59,231 nt of DNA. Origin: an uncultured delta proteobacterium. GTDB lineage: Bacteria; Desulfobacterota; Binatia; Bin18. A program made the translations under genes and the position numbers. Under the pieces are notes generated by a model, which saw only the letters and a list, made by a program, of their open reading frames with translations, was not told where the DNA came from and ran no database searches. Shown piece by piece: positions 110 to 7,319 of this stretch (positions within the stretch are counted from its first letter, which is position 1; every line of letters begins with the position of its first letter). The stretch is from contig CAVTCR010000025.1 in assembly GCA_963733195.1 (NCBI GenBank), positions 1 through 59,231 on the forward strand. The letters are read 5' to 3'.

Positions 110-661
110 CTATGACTCCTGAAGCTTCATCGCTTGCGCAGCCCTCTCAATATACTGGAGCCGTTCCCTACGCTTCGCCGGGTCTTCTTCTTCAACAGTG
201 ATGAGATCTCGTGCTTGAGGTTCTTCATCTTTCAAGAGGCAGATCAACGCCTTGACTGCGCGATCCCAATCCCGGCGCGGGTCTCTTACTCTTAGCCCTT
301 GCTTGCTTGACAGAAAACTTGGCAACTCAGCATTCTGCAGTAGAACAGGAATCAAGCGCTTCTCTGAGTTCTCCCATTCCGACTCCAAGGCTGCTCGCCA
401 TTCAAACTGCTGCTGCCGATCAGGCTCACCCTTGGGACCCACGATGACGATGACAGCATCGGCAGATTGGATCGCGTGTTCAACTTCTCGTTGCTCCTGG
501 GTGCTGGGAATCGGGTTCTCGCCAGTCGTGGGCAATAGGGAGGTTACGATCTTTGTCGAGAAAGGCTTTAACCCGTGAGTAGCCAACTCCGAGACCACGT
601 TGTCCGCGAGTTTACTATACCGCGGAGGGTACGAAACGAAAACTCTTTTAACATCGCCCAT
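110..661 (-). CDS. Stand-alone TIR domain protein (TIR_2-like)
   Basis: VFVSY start motif, AIQSADAVIVIVG, QQFEW (putative catalytic Glu), RLIPVLL...LPSFL are typical of bacterial TIR domains. Confidence 0.85.
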   Translation of the reverse strand: MGDVKRVFVSYPPRYSKLADNVVSELATHGLKPFSTKIVTSLLPTTGENPIPSTQEQREVEHAIQSADAVIVIVGPKGEPDRQQQFEWRAALESEWENSEKRLIPVLLQNAELPSFLSSKQGLRVRDPRRDWDRAVKALICLLKDEEPQARDLITVEEEDPAKRRERLQYIERAAQAMKLQES

Positions 662-835
662 AAGGAAACCTCATCTCTCTAGCGTAACGATGCCAGACTT
701 CTCGAGCGTTCGATGAATAACCTTAACAGTGTGGTTTACTCTACGCTAGTTATAAAGGCGTTCGTACCGAGGTCTTTGCAAGATAGTGTGTAAAATAAAC
801 AAGCAGCGATATGCTCTCGGATGACGTTGTCTGCT

Positions 836-3800
836 TCAGGTTAACTCTTCCAACAATGCCTTCGCCTCTTGCAAGTCTTTGGTGTCAAAGCCTTCGGTGA
901 ACCAGTGGTAGACCTCTGCCAACAACTGGTGAGCCTCGGTTCTTCTTGCCCTGTTGCTGCCAGAGCCGAGCGAGGCTCGTTGTGGCGCGAAGCTCCCAGG
1001 ACTTGGCTTGTTGCTGTCGGGCGATCTCAATGGCCTTGAGAAAACACGCCACGGCCTCCGCCTCTACTTGGGGGTTGGGTGTTAGGGGTTGGGGCTTGGT
1101 AATTTTTGACTTTTGGCTTTTGACTTTTGATTTTTGACTTTTCCTGCCTGAAGCGTCAGCTCGCCTTTCAGCCGATATAACTCGGCCTCGCCGAAGCGCA
1201 TCCCAGTTTTGTCTATCCTCGCCGATGCCTCGGCCAGCAGGGCCAGCCCTTTCTCCGCCTGTCCCGCTTTCGCATACGTCGCGGCCAGCGAGGGTAGCCA
1301 ACGTATCGGTCCCCCTTCAGTCCCCGTAGCCCGGCAGGCAGCCAGGCCCTCCTCCAGCTGCGCAATGCCCTCTTCCACCTGCCCCTGCTCGGCCAGCGCC
1401 CAGCCTCGCAGCATGGTCCCATACGCCAGCCAGAACGCAAACCCCTGCTCGGTGGAGAGCCTTACCATCGCTTCGGTCCGCTCTTGTACCCGTTGCCTGT
1501 CTCGGCGCCATTGGTGCAAGACAGCAGTCGCCCAAAGGGCAACAGCTTCATCAAAGGGAGAAGCCACCTCCTGGGCCAAGACAAGGGCTTGCTGAACTCT
1601 GCCGAGGGCTTGGTCTGGATACCCGAACAACCACAAGTTCCAGGCCATAAAGGTTAAGCACACGACCCCAGGGTCCTCCCCGGCGCAGAGAAAAGTCAGG
1701 GAGCGATGGTGTTGGGGATCGTAAAGGGCAATGACCTGTTCCAGATGGGTCTGGGATTGAGCCAGCTCTCCGCGCCAGTGTAAAGCCTTCCCCAGCGCAT
1801 CATGGGCCATCAGGAGCACCTCGGGGGCGTGGCGGTTCTGGGCGAGGGTGAGCAACTCCTCTCCCAACTCGCACACGGTCTGGAATTCCGCCCGATTCAG
1901 GTGAAATTGCCACAGCCCCCCCAGCGCAGTGAAGAGCTGCGGGGTCTCCCCCACTTGCCGGCACAACTCACGCGCGCGGCTGTAGGTGTGTTCGACTTCC
2001 CGTGACGCATAGCCTTTGGTAATTAACTGCGAGGCGCCCAAAGTCAGTTGGAGCGTGAGTTCTTGATGGACGCGCTCGGGGGTGTCGGGCAGAGTTTTGA
2101 GGAGATCTAGCCCTTTGATGAGAAGGCTGATCGCTTCCTGATGAGCAGAGCGCCGCCTTGCATTCTCGCCCGCTTGGTGCAGATAGTGAATGGCACGCTT
2201 GGTATCCCGCCCCCGCTCAAAGTGCACGGCCAGTTCGGCCGCAATCTCTCGTGCCTGAGTCCCATACGCCGCCTCCGTCCTCTCCCCAAGCAACCGATGC
2301 AGACGGCTACGCCGTGCCGCCGGGATGCGCTCGTATAATACCTCTTGATACAAGGCATGCAGAAATTGATAGCGGGCCGTCACCGTCCCATCCGGCCACT
2401 CTGCCGGCGCTCGCGTTCGTAGAAACTGCTCCCGTCTCACCAGGGCCTCACACCGCGCCTCTACGGTCTCTGGAAGTTGCTCCACGCCCGCGGCCACCGC
2501 CGCGGCGGAGAACTCTGCCCCGGCTACGCTCGCCGCTTCTAAGACCTCACACGCTTCAGGGCTGACCCGCTCAATCTGTTGCTCAATTAACTGCCGCAGG
2601 TTTGCCGGCGTCCCTAACGTGTGCTCGCTCACCTCTCTGCGCAGCTCCCATTCCCCATTGGTCTTTGCCAACACGCCTTGAGCAACCAAATCGTTGAGCA
2701 CATTGACCATGAACAACGGATTGCCATCCGTGCGCCGGTGAATGACGTGCGCTAGTTTTGCTACGAATCCGGCGACAAAAGGTTCCCTCTTCCCTTGTGG
2801 GAGAGGGTCAGGGCGAAGGGATCGCCCGTCGTGCTCTCGGTGTGACGCCCCTCCATCCTGACCTTTCCCCGCACGGGAGGAGGGAACATGAAACCTCACT
2901 ACTAGATACTCGGCGACATCCCCTTCCGTGAGAAAGTCCAGGGCTAACTCCTCACAGCGTCCGTGGAGCTGCAACTCCTGCTTGACTCCCTTCAGCGGAT
3001 GGTCACGGGTCAACACTTCCACCGGGCGATACGTGCCGACGATCAGGAAGCGGGCCGTCTCTTGACGGCGGGCCAGCATGGAGAGCAAATCCAGGGTCGA
3101 CACATCGCTCCAGTGCAAGTCTTCGAGGACCAACACTAAGGGGTGCTCGGCCGTGAGCACTTCCAACGCCTCAGCGAATTCCCGTAGCATCCGCTCGCGC
3201 GTCACGCCTGCTGTCCGCCGCTGCAGCTCCTCCAGCTGTTCAGTACTGAGTAGGGACGGCAGCTGCACCAACCAACTCGGGGCATGCTGCCGCAGCACGG
3301 CAATGATGTCGTTTCCGTACTGTTGGCGACACAGCCGCCCCAACGCTTCCAGCACTGGCAAATAAACTTCGCCCGCCCCGTAGTGTTCAATACATTGCCC
3401 CCCACCTACCCATACCATTTGGTGCCAAGGATTTGGAGCTGAGGGACTAGGTGAGGAAACTCTTATGTTTGCTCTTTGACTTTTGCGTGCTTTGAACTTT
3501 TGACTTTCTTCTTGGTCTCGAACCCCGGCTACAAATGTCTCCAGAAGAGCAGTCTTGCCAATCCCCGCCTCGCCGGTGACAAAGACGAGCTGGCGTTTGC
3601 CGCTCAGCGCTTTATCGAACCACCTGTGGAGTTGCGCGAGTTCGGGTTTACGTCCGACCAGAGGAGTTGTCAGGTGCCAGTCCCCAGCTGCCAGTTGAGG
3701 ACTTCTTGTTCCTACCGTGTCTATATTAGAAACTGAGAACTGACGACTGGTAACTGGCTGGGCAGTGACAGCGTGGCGGAAGCGAAACCCGCGTCGGTGC

Positions 3801-4078
3801 ACGGTCTCAATATACCGCGGCTTCTTCGCGTTATCGTGTAACGCTTGCCGCACTTCTTGAATACACGAGCTCAATGCCGCATCACTGACGACGGCGTCAG
3901 ACCACACGGCCTGAAAGAACTCTTCTTTCGTCACTACCTGCCCAGCCCGCTCAACCAGATGGCGGAGCACAGCGATCGCTTTTCCAGTCAATCTCACTTC
4001 CTGTTTGTCTCTCCACAGCTGCCCCGTGTGAGGGTCCCATCGATAGGGACCAAAGGTAAGTAAGTGATATGATTGCAT
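836..4078 (-). CDS. wHTH (OmpR/PhoB-type) + AAA/STAND ATPase + TPR transcriptional regulator; two frameshifts near the C-terminus
   Basis: FGPYRWD...YIETVHRRGFRF wHTH; Walker A GEAGIGKT; Walker B LVLEDLHWSD; TDGNPLF; C-terminal ...ELRATTSLARLW and WFTEGFDTKDLQEAKALL recovered in ORFs 885-1301 and 836-1030; ATG at 4078. Confidence 0.9.
2782..2887. repeat. Palindromic REP/MITE-like element inserted inside the STAND regulator without breaking the frame
   Basis: About 40-bp imperfect inverted repeats gttccctcttcccttgtgggagagggtcaggg / cctgacctttccccgcacgggaggagggaac; encodes ...PSSRAGKGQDGG...PDPLPQGKRE. Confidence 0.7.
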
Positions 4079-4104
4079 TTTCTGCTCGCCCCGCGTCCTG
4101 AAGT

Positions 4105-4133
4105 AATCCCAAACAAATCCCAGGGTTTTCCCA
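4105..4133 (+). promoter_or_regulatory. Three 11-bp-periodic direct repeats (AATCCCA, AATCCCA, TTTCCCA): putative wHTH operator
   Basis: Near-identical array at 28475-28503, at the same 27-nt offset from the ATG of another wHTH regulator. Confidence 0.7.
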
Positions 4134-4214
4134 AGACTTCGGCCGGCCGTGCTCGTATTTTCCTGACACACAACGTGCCTGATTGCAAGCGAAAGGCCGA
4201 GACGGAGCCAGAGC

Positions 4215-4445
4215 ATGCCACAGCAGCACACTGAACAATCCCCGTTGTCAGTCCACCGTGCCTTTGTTGTCCACTTCCGCCTGAGCACGACCCTCGCAGG
4301 GGGTCCGATTGAGGGACGGGTCGAGCATGTGGTGTCCGGACAATCCACCCATTTCGACTCGCTGGAGGAGCTGTTGGGATTTATGGCACGGGTGCTGGCC
4401 TCGGTGCGTGCCCCACCGCGCCGGAGATCGAGCAGCGGCGACTAA
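4215..4445 (+). CDS. Small conserved-looking hypothetical protein (76 aa) divergent from STAND regulator
   Basis: GGAG upstream; RAFVVHFR...GRVEHVVSG...HFDSLEELLGF pattern that I recall from small proteins next to such regulators. Confidence 0.75.
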   Translation: MPQQHTEQSPLSVHRAFVVHFRLSTTLAGGPIEGRVEHVVSGQSTHFDSLEELLGFMARVLASVRAPPRRRSSSGD

Positions 4446-4483
4446 GCAAAATGGACTCTAAACACCTCAGGAAGGAGAAGATT

Positions 4484-4909
4484 ATGAAACGGGCTATCAC
4501 GTTAGTAGTGTTCGTCACTTCTTTCGTCGGCTTGCTTGTCCTGGGACCCGTGTCCCGGGTGCAGGCGGGACAATGCTCAAACGCCAGCATCAAAGGCAGC
4601 TATGGGTTCTCCTGCGAGGGCACTGTCGTCGGGGTCGGCCCTATCGCTGTGGTTGCTCTGTTCACCGCCGACGGGAATGGCAAAGGTTCCGCAATTGAAA
4701 CTACCAGCCTTAACGGCGAAATCACCACCGAAGTCCCCTTTACGGTCTCCTATACCGTGAATGCGGACTGCACCGGCTCTTTCGAGAGTACCGCACCCGA
4801 CGGCACTGTCTTCGACAACTATTTCGTGCTTGACGACAACAAGAAAGAGATGCGCCTCATCCCAACCGTACCTGGGCTCGTGGCCGTCTGTATCTTCAGG
4901 AAGCAGTAG
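4484..4909 (+). CDS. Secreted beta-rich hypothetical protein
   Basis: RBS AGGAG, signal peptide MKRAITLVVF...VQA, CSNASIKGSYGF and YTVNADCTG motifs. Confidence 0.85.
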   Translation: MKRAITLVVFVTSFVGLLVLGPVSRVQAGQCSNASIKGSYGFSCEGTVVGVGPIAVVALFTADGNGKGSAIETTSLNGEITTEVPFTVSYTVNADCTGSFESTAPDGTVFDNYFVLDDNKKEMRLIPTVPGLVAVCIFRKQ

Positions 4910-5046
4910 CGGGGGAAAGGCGCGGGGGGCACTTCACCGGAGGAGTGGCGAGATCACAGGGACGATCATCCCTACCAAGTAACGTCCCAGGAGATTGAAA
5001 GGTACAGCTAGAACCTCTCCTCCAGCTTCCCCGCAAAGGATCAGGA

Positions 5047-5072
5047 GTAGGGTGGGTCACGATCCACCCTAC
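5047..5072. repeat. GTAG-type REP-like hairpin
   Basis: gtagggtgggtcacgatccaccctac. Confidence 0.55.
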
Positions 5073-5089
5073 AAGGCGTTTTCATCACT

Positions 5090-5184
5090 TGGATGAATTG
5101 CTGGACGTGTTCGCGAACAAAGTCTTCTAAGTGCTCCCAGGTCCTGCTGGCCTTCGGTTCTGGTGTGGTGGTCTTTTGCGCCAT
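5090..5184 (-). pseudogene. IS256-family transposase N-terminal remnant
   Basis: AGGAG RBS then MAQKTTTPEPKASRTWEHLEDFVREHVQQFIQ, located just inside the IS256-type end. Confidence 0.6.
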
Positions 5185-5321
5185 GGCGTCTCTCCTTCTC
5201 TGCCCAGGCATTGAGCCTGATGGGTTAAGTCACCCGAGAGGATATGCTGCCCAACTCGCATTTACACACCTTCCGAAGTTACCTCTTTCGTACCTACTTT
5301 CATCCTCAGGCAATGAGACCG

Positions 5322-6188
5322 TCACGATTTCTTTGACACGTCGATCATTCGCTCCTCATCTCGCCAACGTTGTACGACATCAGGGATATCTAATACCTGC
5401 AAGAGGGACTCGGTCAAATCATACGTCCGGTCATCTAATCCAGCACGGGCGATACTATCCCTCAGTCCACTGAACACTGCGTTTCCCATCATAAAAGCAT
5501 ACGCATCAGCTGGGATTTGCACCGTAGACTGGCTGTGACCATACGCCTGCTCACATACATCGCGACGCAGAGAGTTCCATCCGCGGCATTTAAGCGGCCG
5601 CGCAGCATAGGCCATGCACTGATTGTTTTGTAAGAGCGCACAAGGGATCGGTGGCTTGGGAGAAGGTGTAGCAATGCTTCTCCGACTCTGCTGCTGCCGA
5701 TCTGCGAGTCGTTTGCGTAAGGCTTCGATCTCGTCTGCTGAACAATGTGCCTGAAGCCAATCTGCTAAATACACAGCTTCTGCTGCAGTCACTAATACGG
5801 TAGGGACATAGCAGCAAAATGCGCATCCCGCCTGACATGCCCGCTGCGCCGTTTCCGGCGATTGGCTGATCATGGTATCCGCCCAAGCATGCGCATTATT
5901 CACCAAAGTGGTGACATGTTCGGCTTCCTTTCCCGCCTGCAAAATAGCCGTCGCATCATGATATTCCGCCGCGTACACTGCTAACTCCTCACCAGCCTCA
6001 GGAGGCAATCCCTGAGCCACGAGGGTAGCGATCAGTTGCTGCACCTTCTCTGGTGCGGTCTGTTGCTGAAGTTGTCGTTTGATCGCGGCTATGTCTAAGT
6101 GCGACGAGGATACACTCCCCTCAGTCTCAGCGTTTGTTGCCTTTTTTCGTGCTTCTCTCTCTTGTCGTCGTCGTTCCGCGCGATTCAT
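5322..6188 (-). CDS. YkgJ family cysteine-cluster protein
   Basis: CQAGCAFCC and CALLQNNQCMAYAARPLKCR motifs; ATG 6188 after GAGG. Confidence 0.85.
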   Translation of the reverse strand: MNRAERRRQEREARKKATNAETEGSVSSSHLDIAAIKRQLQQQTAPEKVQQLIATLVAQGLPPEAGEELAVYAAEYHDATAILQAGKEAEHVTTLVNNAHAWADTMISQSPETAQRACQAGCAFCCYVPTVLVTAAEAVYLADWLQAHCSADEIEALRKRLADRQQQSRRSIATPSPKPPIPCALLQNNQCMAYAARPLKCRGWNSLRRDVCEQAYGHSQSTVQIPADAYAFMMGNAVFSGLRDSIARAGLDDRTYDLTESLLQVLDIPDVVQRWRDEERMIDVSKKS

Positions 6189-6338
6189 AGATTCCTCACA
6201 AAAACACTCCTTCACGGCAATCTTCGGTCTCCTTCCCTATCAAGCAACACCGGCGAAACCAACGGTAGGGAACTTTCATCTGATCTAATGGGTTGATATA
6301 TCGATTCTTACCGGCAGTACTGCAAGCAAGAGGTGAGA

Positions 6339-7319
6339 ATGCATACCGCGATCGTCCCCTTTGCCCACCGGGTCCAGCAAGAAGGAAAACACTTGAGTCG
6401 AGTCGCCCTCGACACCGTCCAGATCAATGTCGGCAAGCTGTGTAACCAGGCCTGCCTCCATTGTCATGTTGAAGCCGGACCGAAACGCACCGAGATTATG
6501 GAGCGGCAGACTGCCGAACTCGCTCTTGATTTTATTCGCGCTGCCGCTTCACAGACAGTAGATATCACGGGTGGTGCGCCGGAGCTCAATCCGTCTTTTC
6601 GTTGGCTAGTAGAACAAGCTCGACGTGACGGGCGACATGTTATCGATCGTTGCAATCTCACGATTCTTCTCGAACCTGGCCAGGAGGATTTACTACAGTT
6701 TCTTGCGACGATGCAGGTGGAAATTGTTGCCAGTCTTCCTTGTTACTCAGAAGAGAATGTCACCAAACAACGTGGCCAAGGCGTGTATGATAAGTCAATC
6801 GAAGCCTTACGGCGTCTCAATGCGATTGGTTACGGCAAAGCAAGCTCAGGGCTGACTCTCAATTTAGTCTACAATCCAGTGGGGGCTCACCTTCCACCAC
6901 CACAAGCGAAATTGGAAGATGATTATAAGCGAGAATTAGGCGCCCGATTTGGTCTCGAATTCAACCATCTCTACACCATCACCAACATGCCGATCGCTCG
7001 CTTTGCGCACACCCTTCAACGCGATGGGAAAGCAGAGTCGTACATGGAGCTGCTTGCGAGTTCATTCAATCCGACAACCATTGAGGGGCTCATGTGTCGC
7101 CGTCAGATCAGCATTTCCTGGGACGGGTATGTATATGATTGCGACTTCAACCAAATGCTCGACATGAAAGTCGGCAATGGCAAACCATTTCGGTTAGGTG
7201 AGAAGCCTGCGCTCGAGCTTGTCCGCTTGTTACAAACAAGAGATATTCTCGTCAACTCACACTGTTACGGGTGTACGGCTGGCGCGGGCTCAAGCTGCGG
7301 CGGAAGTTTGCAATCATAG
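6339..7319 (+). CDS. arsS: ArsS-like radical SAM / Cys-rich (DUF3641) protein
   Basis: CNQACLHC radical SAM motif, DITGGAPE, YDCDFNQML, C-terminal HCYGCTAGAGSSCGG. Confidence 0.88.
   Translation: MHTAIVPFAHRVQQEGKHLSRVALDTVQINVGKLCNQACLHCHVEAGPKRTEIMERQTAELALDFIRAAASQTVDITGGAPELNPSFRWLVEQARRDGRHVIDRCNLTILLEPGQEDLLQFLATMQVEIVASLPCYSEENVTKQRGQGVYDKSIEALRRLNAIGYGKASSGLTLNLVYNPVGAHLPPPQAKLEDDYKRELGARFGLEFNHLYTITNMPIARFAHTLQRDGKAESYMELLASSFNPTTIEGLMCRRQISISWDGYVYDCDFNQMLDMKVGNGKPFRLGEKPALELVRLLQTRDILVNSHCYGCTAGAGSSCGGSLQS

Follow-up and report, generated by a model that had tools for sequence, protein, structure and literature searches.

A probable mobile insertion cassette derived from an IS256-family transporter insertion sequence encloses a wHTH-STAND module in an uncultured Binatia bacterium

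The window analysed here is the 59,231-nucleotide contig CAVTCR010000025.1 of an uncultured delta proteobacterium of the Binatia (assembly GCA_963733195.1). We propose that positions 769-5286 of this window, an element of 4518 bp with three genes, are very probably a non-autonomous derivative, that is a mobile insertion cassette (MIC), of an insertion sequence (IS) of the IS256 family that already carried a passenger gene and was therefore a transporter IS (tIS). The cargo of the element consists of a STAND regulator with a winged helix-turn-helix (wHTH) domain, a small open reading frame (ORF) and a gene for a secreted protein, and it is bounded by the STAND stop codon on one side and by the native terminator of the module on the other. 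Of its parent, the element would have kept no more than both ends, the leader and 32 transposase codons, the interior having been swapped for the wHTH-STAND module.

Results

Ends, target-site duplication and IS256 relatives

The element lies between a left and a right end in proper inverted orientation. The left end begins at 769 with the tip GAGGTC and the right end, read inward from 5285, begins with the tip GAGGTAAC, so that both tips share GAGGT. The sequence GTGTGTAAA is found approximately 17-18 nt inside the tip at both ends, and the similarity between the ends extends over about 60 nt, with 44 matches in the 67 columns of a global alignment of about 62 nt each. Outside of the tips, an exact 8-bp direct repeat, TTCGTACC, flanks the element on both sides; by calculation, two fixed boundaries would share an exact 8-mer by chance with a probability of approximately 1.5e-5. 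Subterminal TGTAAA motifs in the terminal repeats and 8-bp target duplications are named as traits of the IS256 family in excerpts of a published description (PMC7780238). The window shows both, namely terminal inverted repeats with a subterminal TGTAAA at either end and an exact duplication of 8 bp, within the 8-9 bp of IS256-type elements. Read as a target-site duplication, the repeat shows that both ends entered TTCGTACC in one IS256-type transposition event. A single additional T at position 5286 stands between the right tip and the right copy of the duplication, which is why an earlier note, made from the letters of this DNA alone, had described a repeat of 9 bp with one mismatch. A contig from the independent public run X13, which spans 5149-5425, has one letter missing at 5286.

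The genome to which the window belongs (G000; 6.95 Mb, 87 contigs, 93% complete) was searched by BLAST with both ends. Counting the window, 14 left ends and 10 right ends were found, and a fifteenth, degenerate left end is present on contig C84. The end copies align up to an abrupt limit at GAGG, and the flanks outside this limit are unrelated. Wherever it is preserved, the ORF inside the right end encodes an IS256-family transposase (PF00872, Transposase_mut), and among copies with related ends the E-values for this domain were 1e-40 (C84), 8e-54 (L026) and 4e-55 (L029). Other public genomes contain plain IS copies of about 1.4 kb with identical tips and ORFs of 414-420 amino acids (L028, L029 and L043), in which the left tip lies approximately 30 bp past the transposase stop codon; in L028 and L029 this stop codon follows the residues ..QQEVAA. 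The earlier note had described inward-facing shared ends, an 8-bp flanking duplication and an IS256 origin of the ends, and it had raised the prospect that the same ends occur elsewhere with other cargo. All four points were borne out, the other cargo being mostly a cyclase-type STAND gene at the left-end loci of the genome, with plain IS copies in other genomes.

The distribution of the transposase family is patchy. Ten of 41 genomes, comprising G000 and 40 relatives, have a match at E ≤ 1e-40, and in G002, G010, G024 and at one G003 locus among these the match reaches only 29-30% identity and represents a more distant IS256-type transposase. Among the same 41 genomes, the nearest ones of the same genus have no close transposase match.

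Transposase remnants and decay of the family

The minus strand of the window next to the right end encodes MAQKTTTPEPKASRTWEHLEDFVREHVQQFIQ (MAQKTT..FIQ), the first 32 codons of the transposase. Over 29-34 amino acids, this start matches the N-termini of other IS256-type transposases of the genome at 71-93%. The other copies read on as ..FIQALLEEEV, and the window departs from them at 5088. No Pfam match, and thus no PF00872 domain, was obtained for the remnant. Both transposase traces that the earlier note had pointed out are real: the start in the right end is the remnant just described, and the ..REHIAA tail in the left end, which had been considered a possible relic, has its counterpart in the ..QQEVAA that precedes the same tip in the plain copies. 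With only these 32 transposase codons left, the element is a non-autonomous derivative of the IS256 family, as the note had suggested.

All nine cognate transposase loci found in the assembly, the window included, are disrupted. The transposase of C35 carries a CGA-to-TGA nonsense codon and a shifted tail, that of C84 has two 1-nt insertions, neither of them in a homopolymer run, and that of C3 is 5'-truncated and shifted. C12 holds fragments, C40, C68, C77 and C66 have internal deletions, and C34 and C72 contain no transposase at all. Due to the nonsense codon of C35 and the internal deletions, disruption at these loci is independent of possible indel errors. Intact relatives of the transposase exist outside G000 (G013, locus L026) and, as the genome is 93% complete, an intact unassembled copy is possible. 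Further movement of the cassette is predicted to need a transposase in trans, and since every cognate transposase found in the assembly is disrupted, the cassette is probably immobile now.

The parent family carries a cyclase-STAND passenger

The parent elements are approximately 5 kb long and are arranged in the order right inverted repeat, IS256 transposase, STAND passenger on the same strand (approximately 3.6 kb) and left end (67 bp). The passenger combines a double zinc ribbon with Guanylate_cyc, AAA_16 and TPR domains. A transposase or its remnant, followed by a cyclase-STAND gene on the same strand, was found in G000 on C35, C84, C40, C3, C12, C68 and C66. The 67-bp left end is located directly 3' of the passenger stop codon in these cyclase-STAND elements, and it is because the family is built in this way that the left end of the window abuts the STAND stop codon. 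Locus L042 has both ends, a frameshifted transposase, an intact STAND protein of 1209 amino acids and a duplication matching at 8/8 positions (CGGCCAAC), and L026 (contig C598 of G013) has an intact transposase ORF of at least 396 amino acids followed by a cyclase-STAND gene, the contig stopping before any left end. Own transposase and passenger within one repeat pair, the arrangement of a tIS, are present in C35, C84 and L042. The duplications round whole units match at 8/8 positions in C25, C35 and L042, at 7/8 in C66 and at 6/8 in C34, and there is none in C84; as they surround whole units, the transposing unit includes the STAND gene. The transposase tails ..RERIAA of C3 and ..QQQLAA of C40, each ending in a stop codon, are a second copy of the segment whose relic is found in the left end, and this duplicated segment suggests that the passenger was captured between an IS and a second end.

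Nine of the 15 left-end loci have a complete or nearly complete STAND gene of the cyclase type. Two loci, both on C28, have cyclase fragments only, one (C64) has a STAND gene without a cyclase match, and three (C12, C11 and C52) are without an adjoining STAND gene; a STAND gene of the wHTH type is seen in the window only. This survey modifies the earlier idea of an IS256 that was later overwritten by the module. The replacement of the interior stands, but the parent was not a plain IS256: it was a tIS that already carried a cyclase-STAND passenger, and the replaced part therefore comprises the transposase from codon 33 on and the cyclase-STAND body.

Elsewhere in the genome, the right end on C74 (23830-28500, locus L004) is followed by a DUF433/DUF5615 (PIN-like) gene pair, which replaces the transposase, and then by a cyclase-STAND gene; no recognisable left end is found at this locus. 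Long ORFs that overlap on both strands mark a repeated sequence at C35 5779-7221 and at C3 89277-89721, which in the C35 element has been inserted close to the 3' end of the passenger STAND gene.

Junctions between the ends and the cargo

The right junction lies between 5088 and 5089, with at most 1 nt of common sequence. Up to about 5086, through the hairpin and tail of the module, the window and the metagenome contig L079 are collinear; they then part, and from 5089 the window is collinear with the 5' region of the C84 transposase. The module terminator thus appears to have been joined to transposase codon 32 without homology, by an illegitimate join. On the left side, positions 769-846, which include the stop codon and the last codons of the STAND gene, are like the tIS copies and unlike all wHTH paralogues. 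From about 847 inward all STAND genes look alike, and this conserved 3' segment matches 159 loci on 63 contigs with 75-97% identity. The left exchange consequently took place inside the conserved STAND 3' segment, and the breakpoint can be placed at or beyond 847 and no more finely; homologous recombination or template switching in this segment would account for it. A chimera breakpoint within the STAND body was also considered and discarded, as a sliding BLAST analysis found the whole body to be like the wHTH paralogues and only 769-846 to be like the tIS copies.

The cargo module and its relatives

The coordinates of all features are given in Table 1. In the STAND gene, the conserved C-terminal motif (842-945) is in the frame of the main ORF and approximately 130 nt between them (about 940-1085) are out of frame. 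The two compensating frame breaks, one at about 1067-1085 in G runs and one at about 940, may be real mutations or assembly indels. The stretch that separates the divergent STAND and small-ORF genes is conserved at the nucleotide level in paralogues on C71, C41, C48 (two copies), C83 and C1 and presumably holds promoters and regulatory sites, such as the putative operator of the earlier note; no sigma-70 consensus was found in it, and consensus scans of 4000-5400 for promoters and terminators returned nothing relevant. The terminator-like hairpin was missed by the simple terminator scan because its tail has only 4 T. A different hairpin is present at the corresponding position in G001 and L076.

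Table 1. Features of the element and its flanking duplication in the window
Feature	Positions	Strand	Basis
Left copy of the target-site duplication, TTCGTACC	761-768	.	geometry as in C35 (8/8) and L042 (8/8)
Left end: terminal inverted repeat ~769-794 (GAGGTC tip, subterminal TGTAAA) and transposase-tail relic ~796-835 (..REHIAA)	769-835	-	14 genome copies with sharp outer edge; same tip in L028, L029, L043
wHTH-STAND gene (Trans_reg_C, AAA_16, TPR), main ORF 4078-1082, stop TGA 836-838	836-4078	-	Pfam; closest relatives of the wHTH type
Divergent intergenic region between STAND gene and small ORF	4079-4214	.	position only
Small ORF, 76 amino acids, conserved family	4215-4445	+	374 database homologues, 18 tblastn matches in genome
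Secreted protein with signal peptide, 141 amino acids	4484-4909	+	ORF and signal peptide; relatives
Terminator-like hairpin (9-bp stem, 5047-5072) with T-rich tail, native end of the module	5047-5088	+	collinearity with L079
IS256-family transposase remnant, 32 codons, MAQKTT..FIQ	5089-5184	-	N-terminal match to other copies
Right end: transposase 5' leader and terminal inverted repeat ~5261-5285 (GAGGTAAC tip inward, subterminal TGTAAA)	5185-5286	-	10 genome copies with sharp outer edge
Right copy of the target-site duplication, TTCGTACC	5287-5294	.	exact repeat of left copy

The small ORF has no Pfam match and all of its database homologues are annotated only as hypothetical. The family shares the motif AFVV.FR...GRVEH.VSGQ..HF.SLEEL..F and is represented in G000 on C48, C83, C1, C71, C41, C42, C70, C57, C76, C8, C87 and C62; at most of these matches a signal-peptide gene comes next and a STAND regulator adjoins. 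The secreted protein likewise has no Pfam match, and its neighbours in the Atlas are all hypothetical. Its relatives, at 65-76% amino acid identity in G001, G005 and G016 and at 86-88% in L076 and L077, are all without IS ends. In six out of six G000 paralogues the small ORF lies next to the STAND gene in divergent orientation, and the set of three genes recurs in G001, G005 and G016. Such an arrangement speaks for a regulator together with its targets, in which the STAND protein would control both divergent genes.

The paralogues to which the STAND body of the window is closest are of the wHTH type and lack IS ends (C1, C41, C71, C48 twice, and C83). The complete module without IS ends is found in G001, which belongs to the same genus (L059), in G005 and G016 from other genera (L060 and L061), and on the metagenome contigs L076, L077 and L079. 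L076 is 86% identical to the STAND gene of the window at the nucleotide level over 861-2820. The genes on either side of its module are syntenic with G000 C62 353073-357984, a stretch that holds other genes in G000 and lacks the module, and over the module the nucleotide identity to L076 amounts to 78-86%, as compared to 74-75% for the flanking genes. A stretch of approximately 120 nt of STAND 3' end is stranded beside unrelated genes at G000 C56 113508-113624, a locus syntenic with the G001 module (L059). C56 was considered as the donor site and dropped, since the STAND gene of G001 resembles that of G000 C71 more than the window copy, which makes the orthology doubtful.

Within the STAND coding region, positions 1100-1143 and 3468-3510 are degenerate 7-nt tandem arrays (TTTTGAC-like) that encode low-complexity sequence of the KSQKSK type. 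In L059, the relative from G001, the first array is built from a different heptamer, and the intact STAND gene of L042 reads through a similar array in frame. Positions 2782-2887 inside the STAND ORF form an inverted repeat whose 39-nt arms are 77% complementary. When L059 and L076 are aligned with the window, a gap (about 2820-2900) falls at this repeat, which therefore resembles a small palindromic insertion that was tolerated in frame.

Insertion site and public reads

Directly to the left of the insertion site lies a gene for a TIR-domain protein (window positions 110-661; PF13676, E 8.5e-15), and to the right a CxxCxxCC-domain gene and a radical SAM/DUF3641 gene. The search for an empty site used the right flank (5295-7319) against the 41 genomes, and the loci of five relatives were examined. 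Among the public sequencing runs, X13 holds 0.32 of the sampled words and twelve others 0.05-0.07. Contigs from four of the 13 runs (X13, X1, X2 and X5) were placed on the window; their cover is fragmentary, so that gaps in it carry no weight. The right end and its flank are bridged by the X13 contig mentioned above, and no circle junction was seen in the contigs of these four runs, given their fragmentary cover.

Discussion

IS256-family elements transpose by a copy-out/paste-in mechanism through a circular intermediate. By analogy, the insertion at TTCGTACC would have followed the same route, with both ends entering the site in a single event. The left exchange would have arisen within the 3' end of the STAND gene, by homologous recombination or by template switching, and an illegitimate join of the module terminator to transposase codon 32 would have closed the right side. 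These steps can be placed in two orders. The chimera could have formed elsewhere and been transposed to the present site with a transposase in trans, to which we give roughly an even chance. In favour of this order, the right junction is without homology, the L076 module stands in another genomic context whose matching G000 site has no module, and the module is closer to L076 than the flanking genes are. Alternatively, a complete tIS could have inserted at TTCGTACC, and a chromosomal wHTH-STAND module could later have replaced its interior through recombination or gene conversion, in which case the cassette with its present cargo never transposed. Such overwriting in place would fit the unique combination of cargo and ends, and the left junction in a highly repeated, conserved STAND 3' segment invites homologous exchange. 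The cognate transposases in the genome are decayed and transposase loss is frequent in the family: C34, C72, C66, C40 and C74, the latter with its DUF433/DUF5615 pair, also lost or replaced the transposase after insertion. However, a two-sided conversion tract is hard to reconcile with a right junction that lacks homology, the nearest relative of the module is found in another context, and the difference in identity between module and flanks hints at a more recent arrival, and we therefore hold this second order to be possible but rather doubtful. The probability that remains beyond the two orders falls to artefacts of assembly or to chance.

Of these, an assembly chimera, in which the metagenome assembler joined an ordinary tIS to a wHTH-STAND module via the repeated STAND 3' end, is very unlikely. 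The presence of this segment at 159 loci with 75-97% identity would favour such an error, and no listed independent contig, in a cover that is fragmentary, spans either about 847 or 5088. Against it, there is no repeat at the right junction that could mislead an assembler, a single duplication is common to both ends, the conserved 3' segment is short, its copies sharing only about 85-90% identity, and the right end with its flank was confirmed by a contig from another run. Slightly less credible still is the idea that no single element exists and that a resident chromosomal module came to lie by chance between two unrelated solo ends, left by separate IS insertions or by decay. Unpaired ends do occur, with left ends on C12 (105341), C28, C52 and C11 and a right end on C77, but chance would then have to provide the exact 8-bp repeat at both outer boundaries as well as the correct inverted orientation of both ends, and the relatives of the module have neither end. 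Finally, since every left end in G000 comes after a STAND stop codon, the ends might be taken for conserved untranslated or regulatory sequences of STAND genes. We consider this next to impossible, as the same terminal 30 bp follow the transposase stop codon in L028, L029 and L043, where there is no STAND gene, the left end repeats, in inverted orientation, the right end in front of the transposase, whole units are flanked by 8-bp duplications, and the left end is found on only 14 of the 159 STAND 3' ends.

Several observations weigh against our proposal that the element is a cassette derived from a tIS. The additional T separates the right tip from the duplication, and the absence of an independent contig across either junction, mentioned above for the assembly, counts here as well. 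In the five relatives examined, the CxxCxxCC gene is present and the TIR gene adjoins it in none; synteny to the left is not kept, and no empty site was found. No read joint that skips 769-5286 was seen in the contigs from X13, X1, X2 and X5, whose cover is fragmentary. Calls that are based on frameshifts only, as for the C84 transposase and the STAND gene of the window, are uncertain because they could reflect assembly indels. The combination of cargo and ends has no second copy in the genome, and a 24-mer across the junction had 0 matches in an exact-match scan of the sets genome_contigs and metagenome_contigs, which would overlook diverged copies. With no second copy, the mobility of the window cassette is shown by its duplication alone. 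For the same reasons, and because five out of five checked relatives of the module are without the ends, the suggestion of the earlier note that such an element spreads these modules as a general vehicle found no support.

One might nevertheless speculate that the IS256-type shell serves as a cargo-swapping platform, in which exchange at a segment of approximately 60-200 nt, common to about 159 STAND genes, loads whole modules that are then moved by a transposase acting in trans. Homologous exchange or copy-choice during copy-out replication could take place at the STAND 3' segment, and the loaded unit would move within the genome and between Binatia lineages. Resting on one example, this idea is improbable at present. 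If it were true, the first example of such a capture would be the one in the window, and this IS family would be among the drivers of the very large expansion of STAND genes in these soil bacteria.

Independent of this speculation, the present analysis documents an IS256-family tIS with a cyclase-STAND passenger of about 1200 amino acids in several genera of uncultured soil bacteria. It also describes, resolved to its junctions, the enclosure of a chromosomal regulatory module by transposon ends, in which one boundary lies in sequence common to a very large paralogous family and the other is the apparent illegitimate join. With 159 STAND 3' ends in 6.9 Mb, this might represent a route for the spread and shuffling of STAND genes. 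For annotation, it follows that the short conserved tails found behind STAND stop codons in these genomes represent IS ends and not terminators. Our literature searches returned no report of an IS256-family tIS with a STAND passenger, nor of MICs derived from one.

Among known systems, the closest to the window are the MICs, such as the TnXax1-derived MICs with transcription activator-like effector (TALE) and other effector genes in Xanthomonas (PMC4337579) and MIC231 of Bacillus cereus (Chen et al. 1999, as cited in PMC4337579). As far as the excerpts of this source describe them, MICs consist, like the window element, of inverted repeats round passenger genes without an own transposase, and a target-site duplication marks their transposition. 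The window has three non-transposition genes within IS-type repeats, no own transposase, and the exact 8-bp duplication typical of its parent IS. MICs are mobilised by their cognate transposase in trans, which for the window can be assumed only by analogy. The ends also differ, being of the IS231 (IS4) type in MIC231 and of the Tn3 type in the TnXax1 MICs, whereas those of the window are of the IS256 type. In addition, the immediate parent of the window element was itself a passenger-carrying IS, and a cargo boundary lies in a segment common to about 159 paralogues, two features that set it apart from the MICs as described in those excerpts.

A tIS is an IS copy that includes passenger genes, according to passages of PMC3129680 and PMC9330008. 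The parent family conforms to this description, in that C35, C84 and L042 have transposase and passenger in one repeat pair and, in C35 and L042, 8-bp duplications round the whole unit. The window copy has lost its transposase and is therefore not itself a tIS. Plain IS256-family elements such as IS256 and ISCth4, as portrayed in parts of PMC7780238, measure approximately 1.37-1.4 kb and share with the copies described here the Mutator-type DDE transposase (PF00872, in copies with related ends), the TGTAAA motif and the 8-bp duplications; the window element, in contrast, has 4.5 kb, 32 transposase codons only and three unrelated genes. Composite transposons and mobilisation of the ISEcp1/ISCR type also bracket chromosomal genes between IS ends, as outlined in sections of PMC9330008. 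However, the window has one pair of ends with no complete IS on either side, unlike a composite transposon, and in contrast to ISEcp1/ISCR-type mobilisation there is no sign of a surrogate end, as both ends are canonical for the family. With 4518 bp and three genes, it also differs from miniature inverted-repeat transposable elements (MITEs), which are non-coding and smaller than about 0.6 kb. Taken together, the structure in the window is best regarded as a new member of a class of mobile cassettes that is already known.

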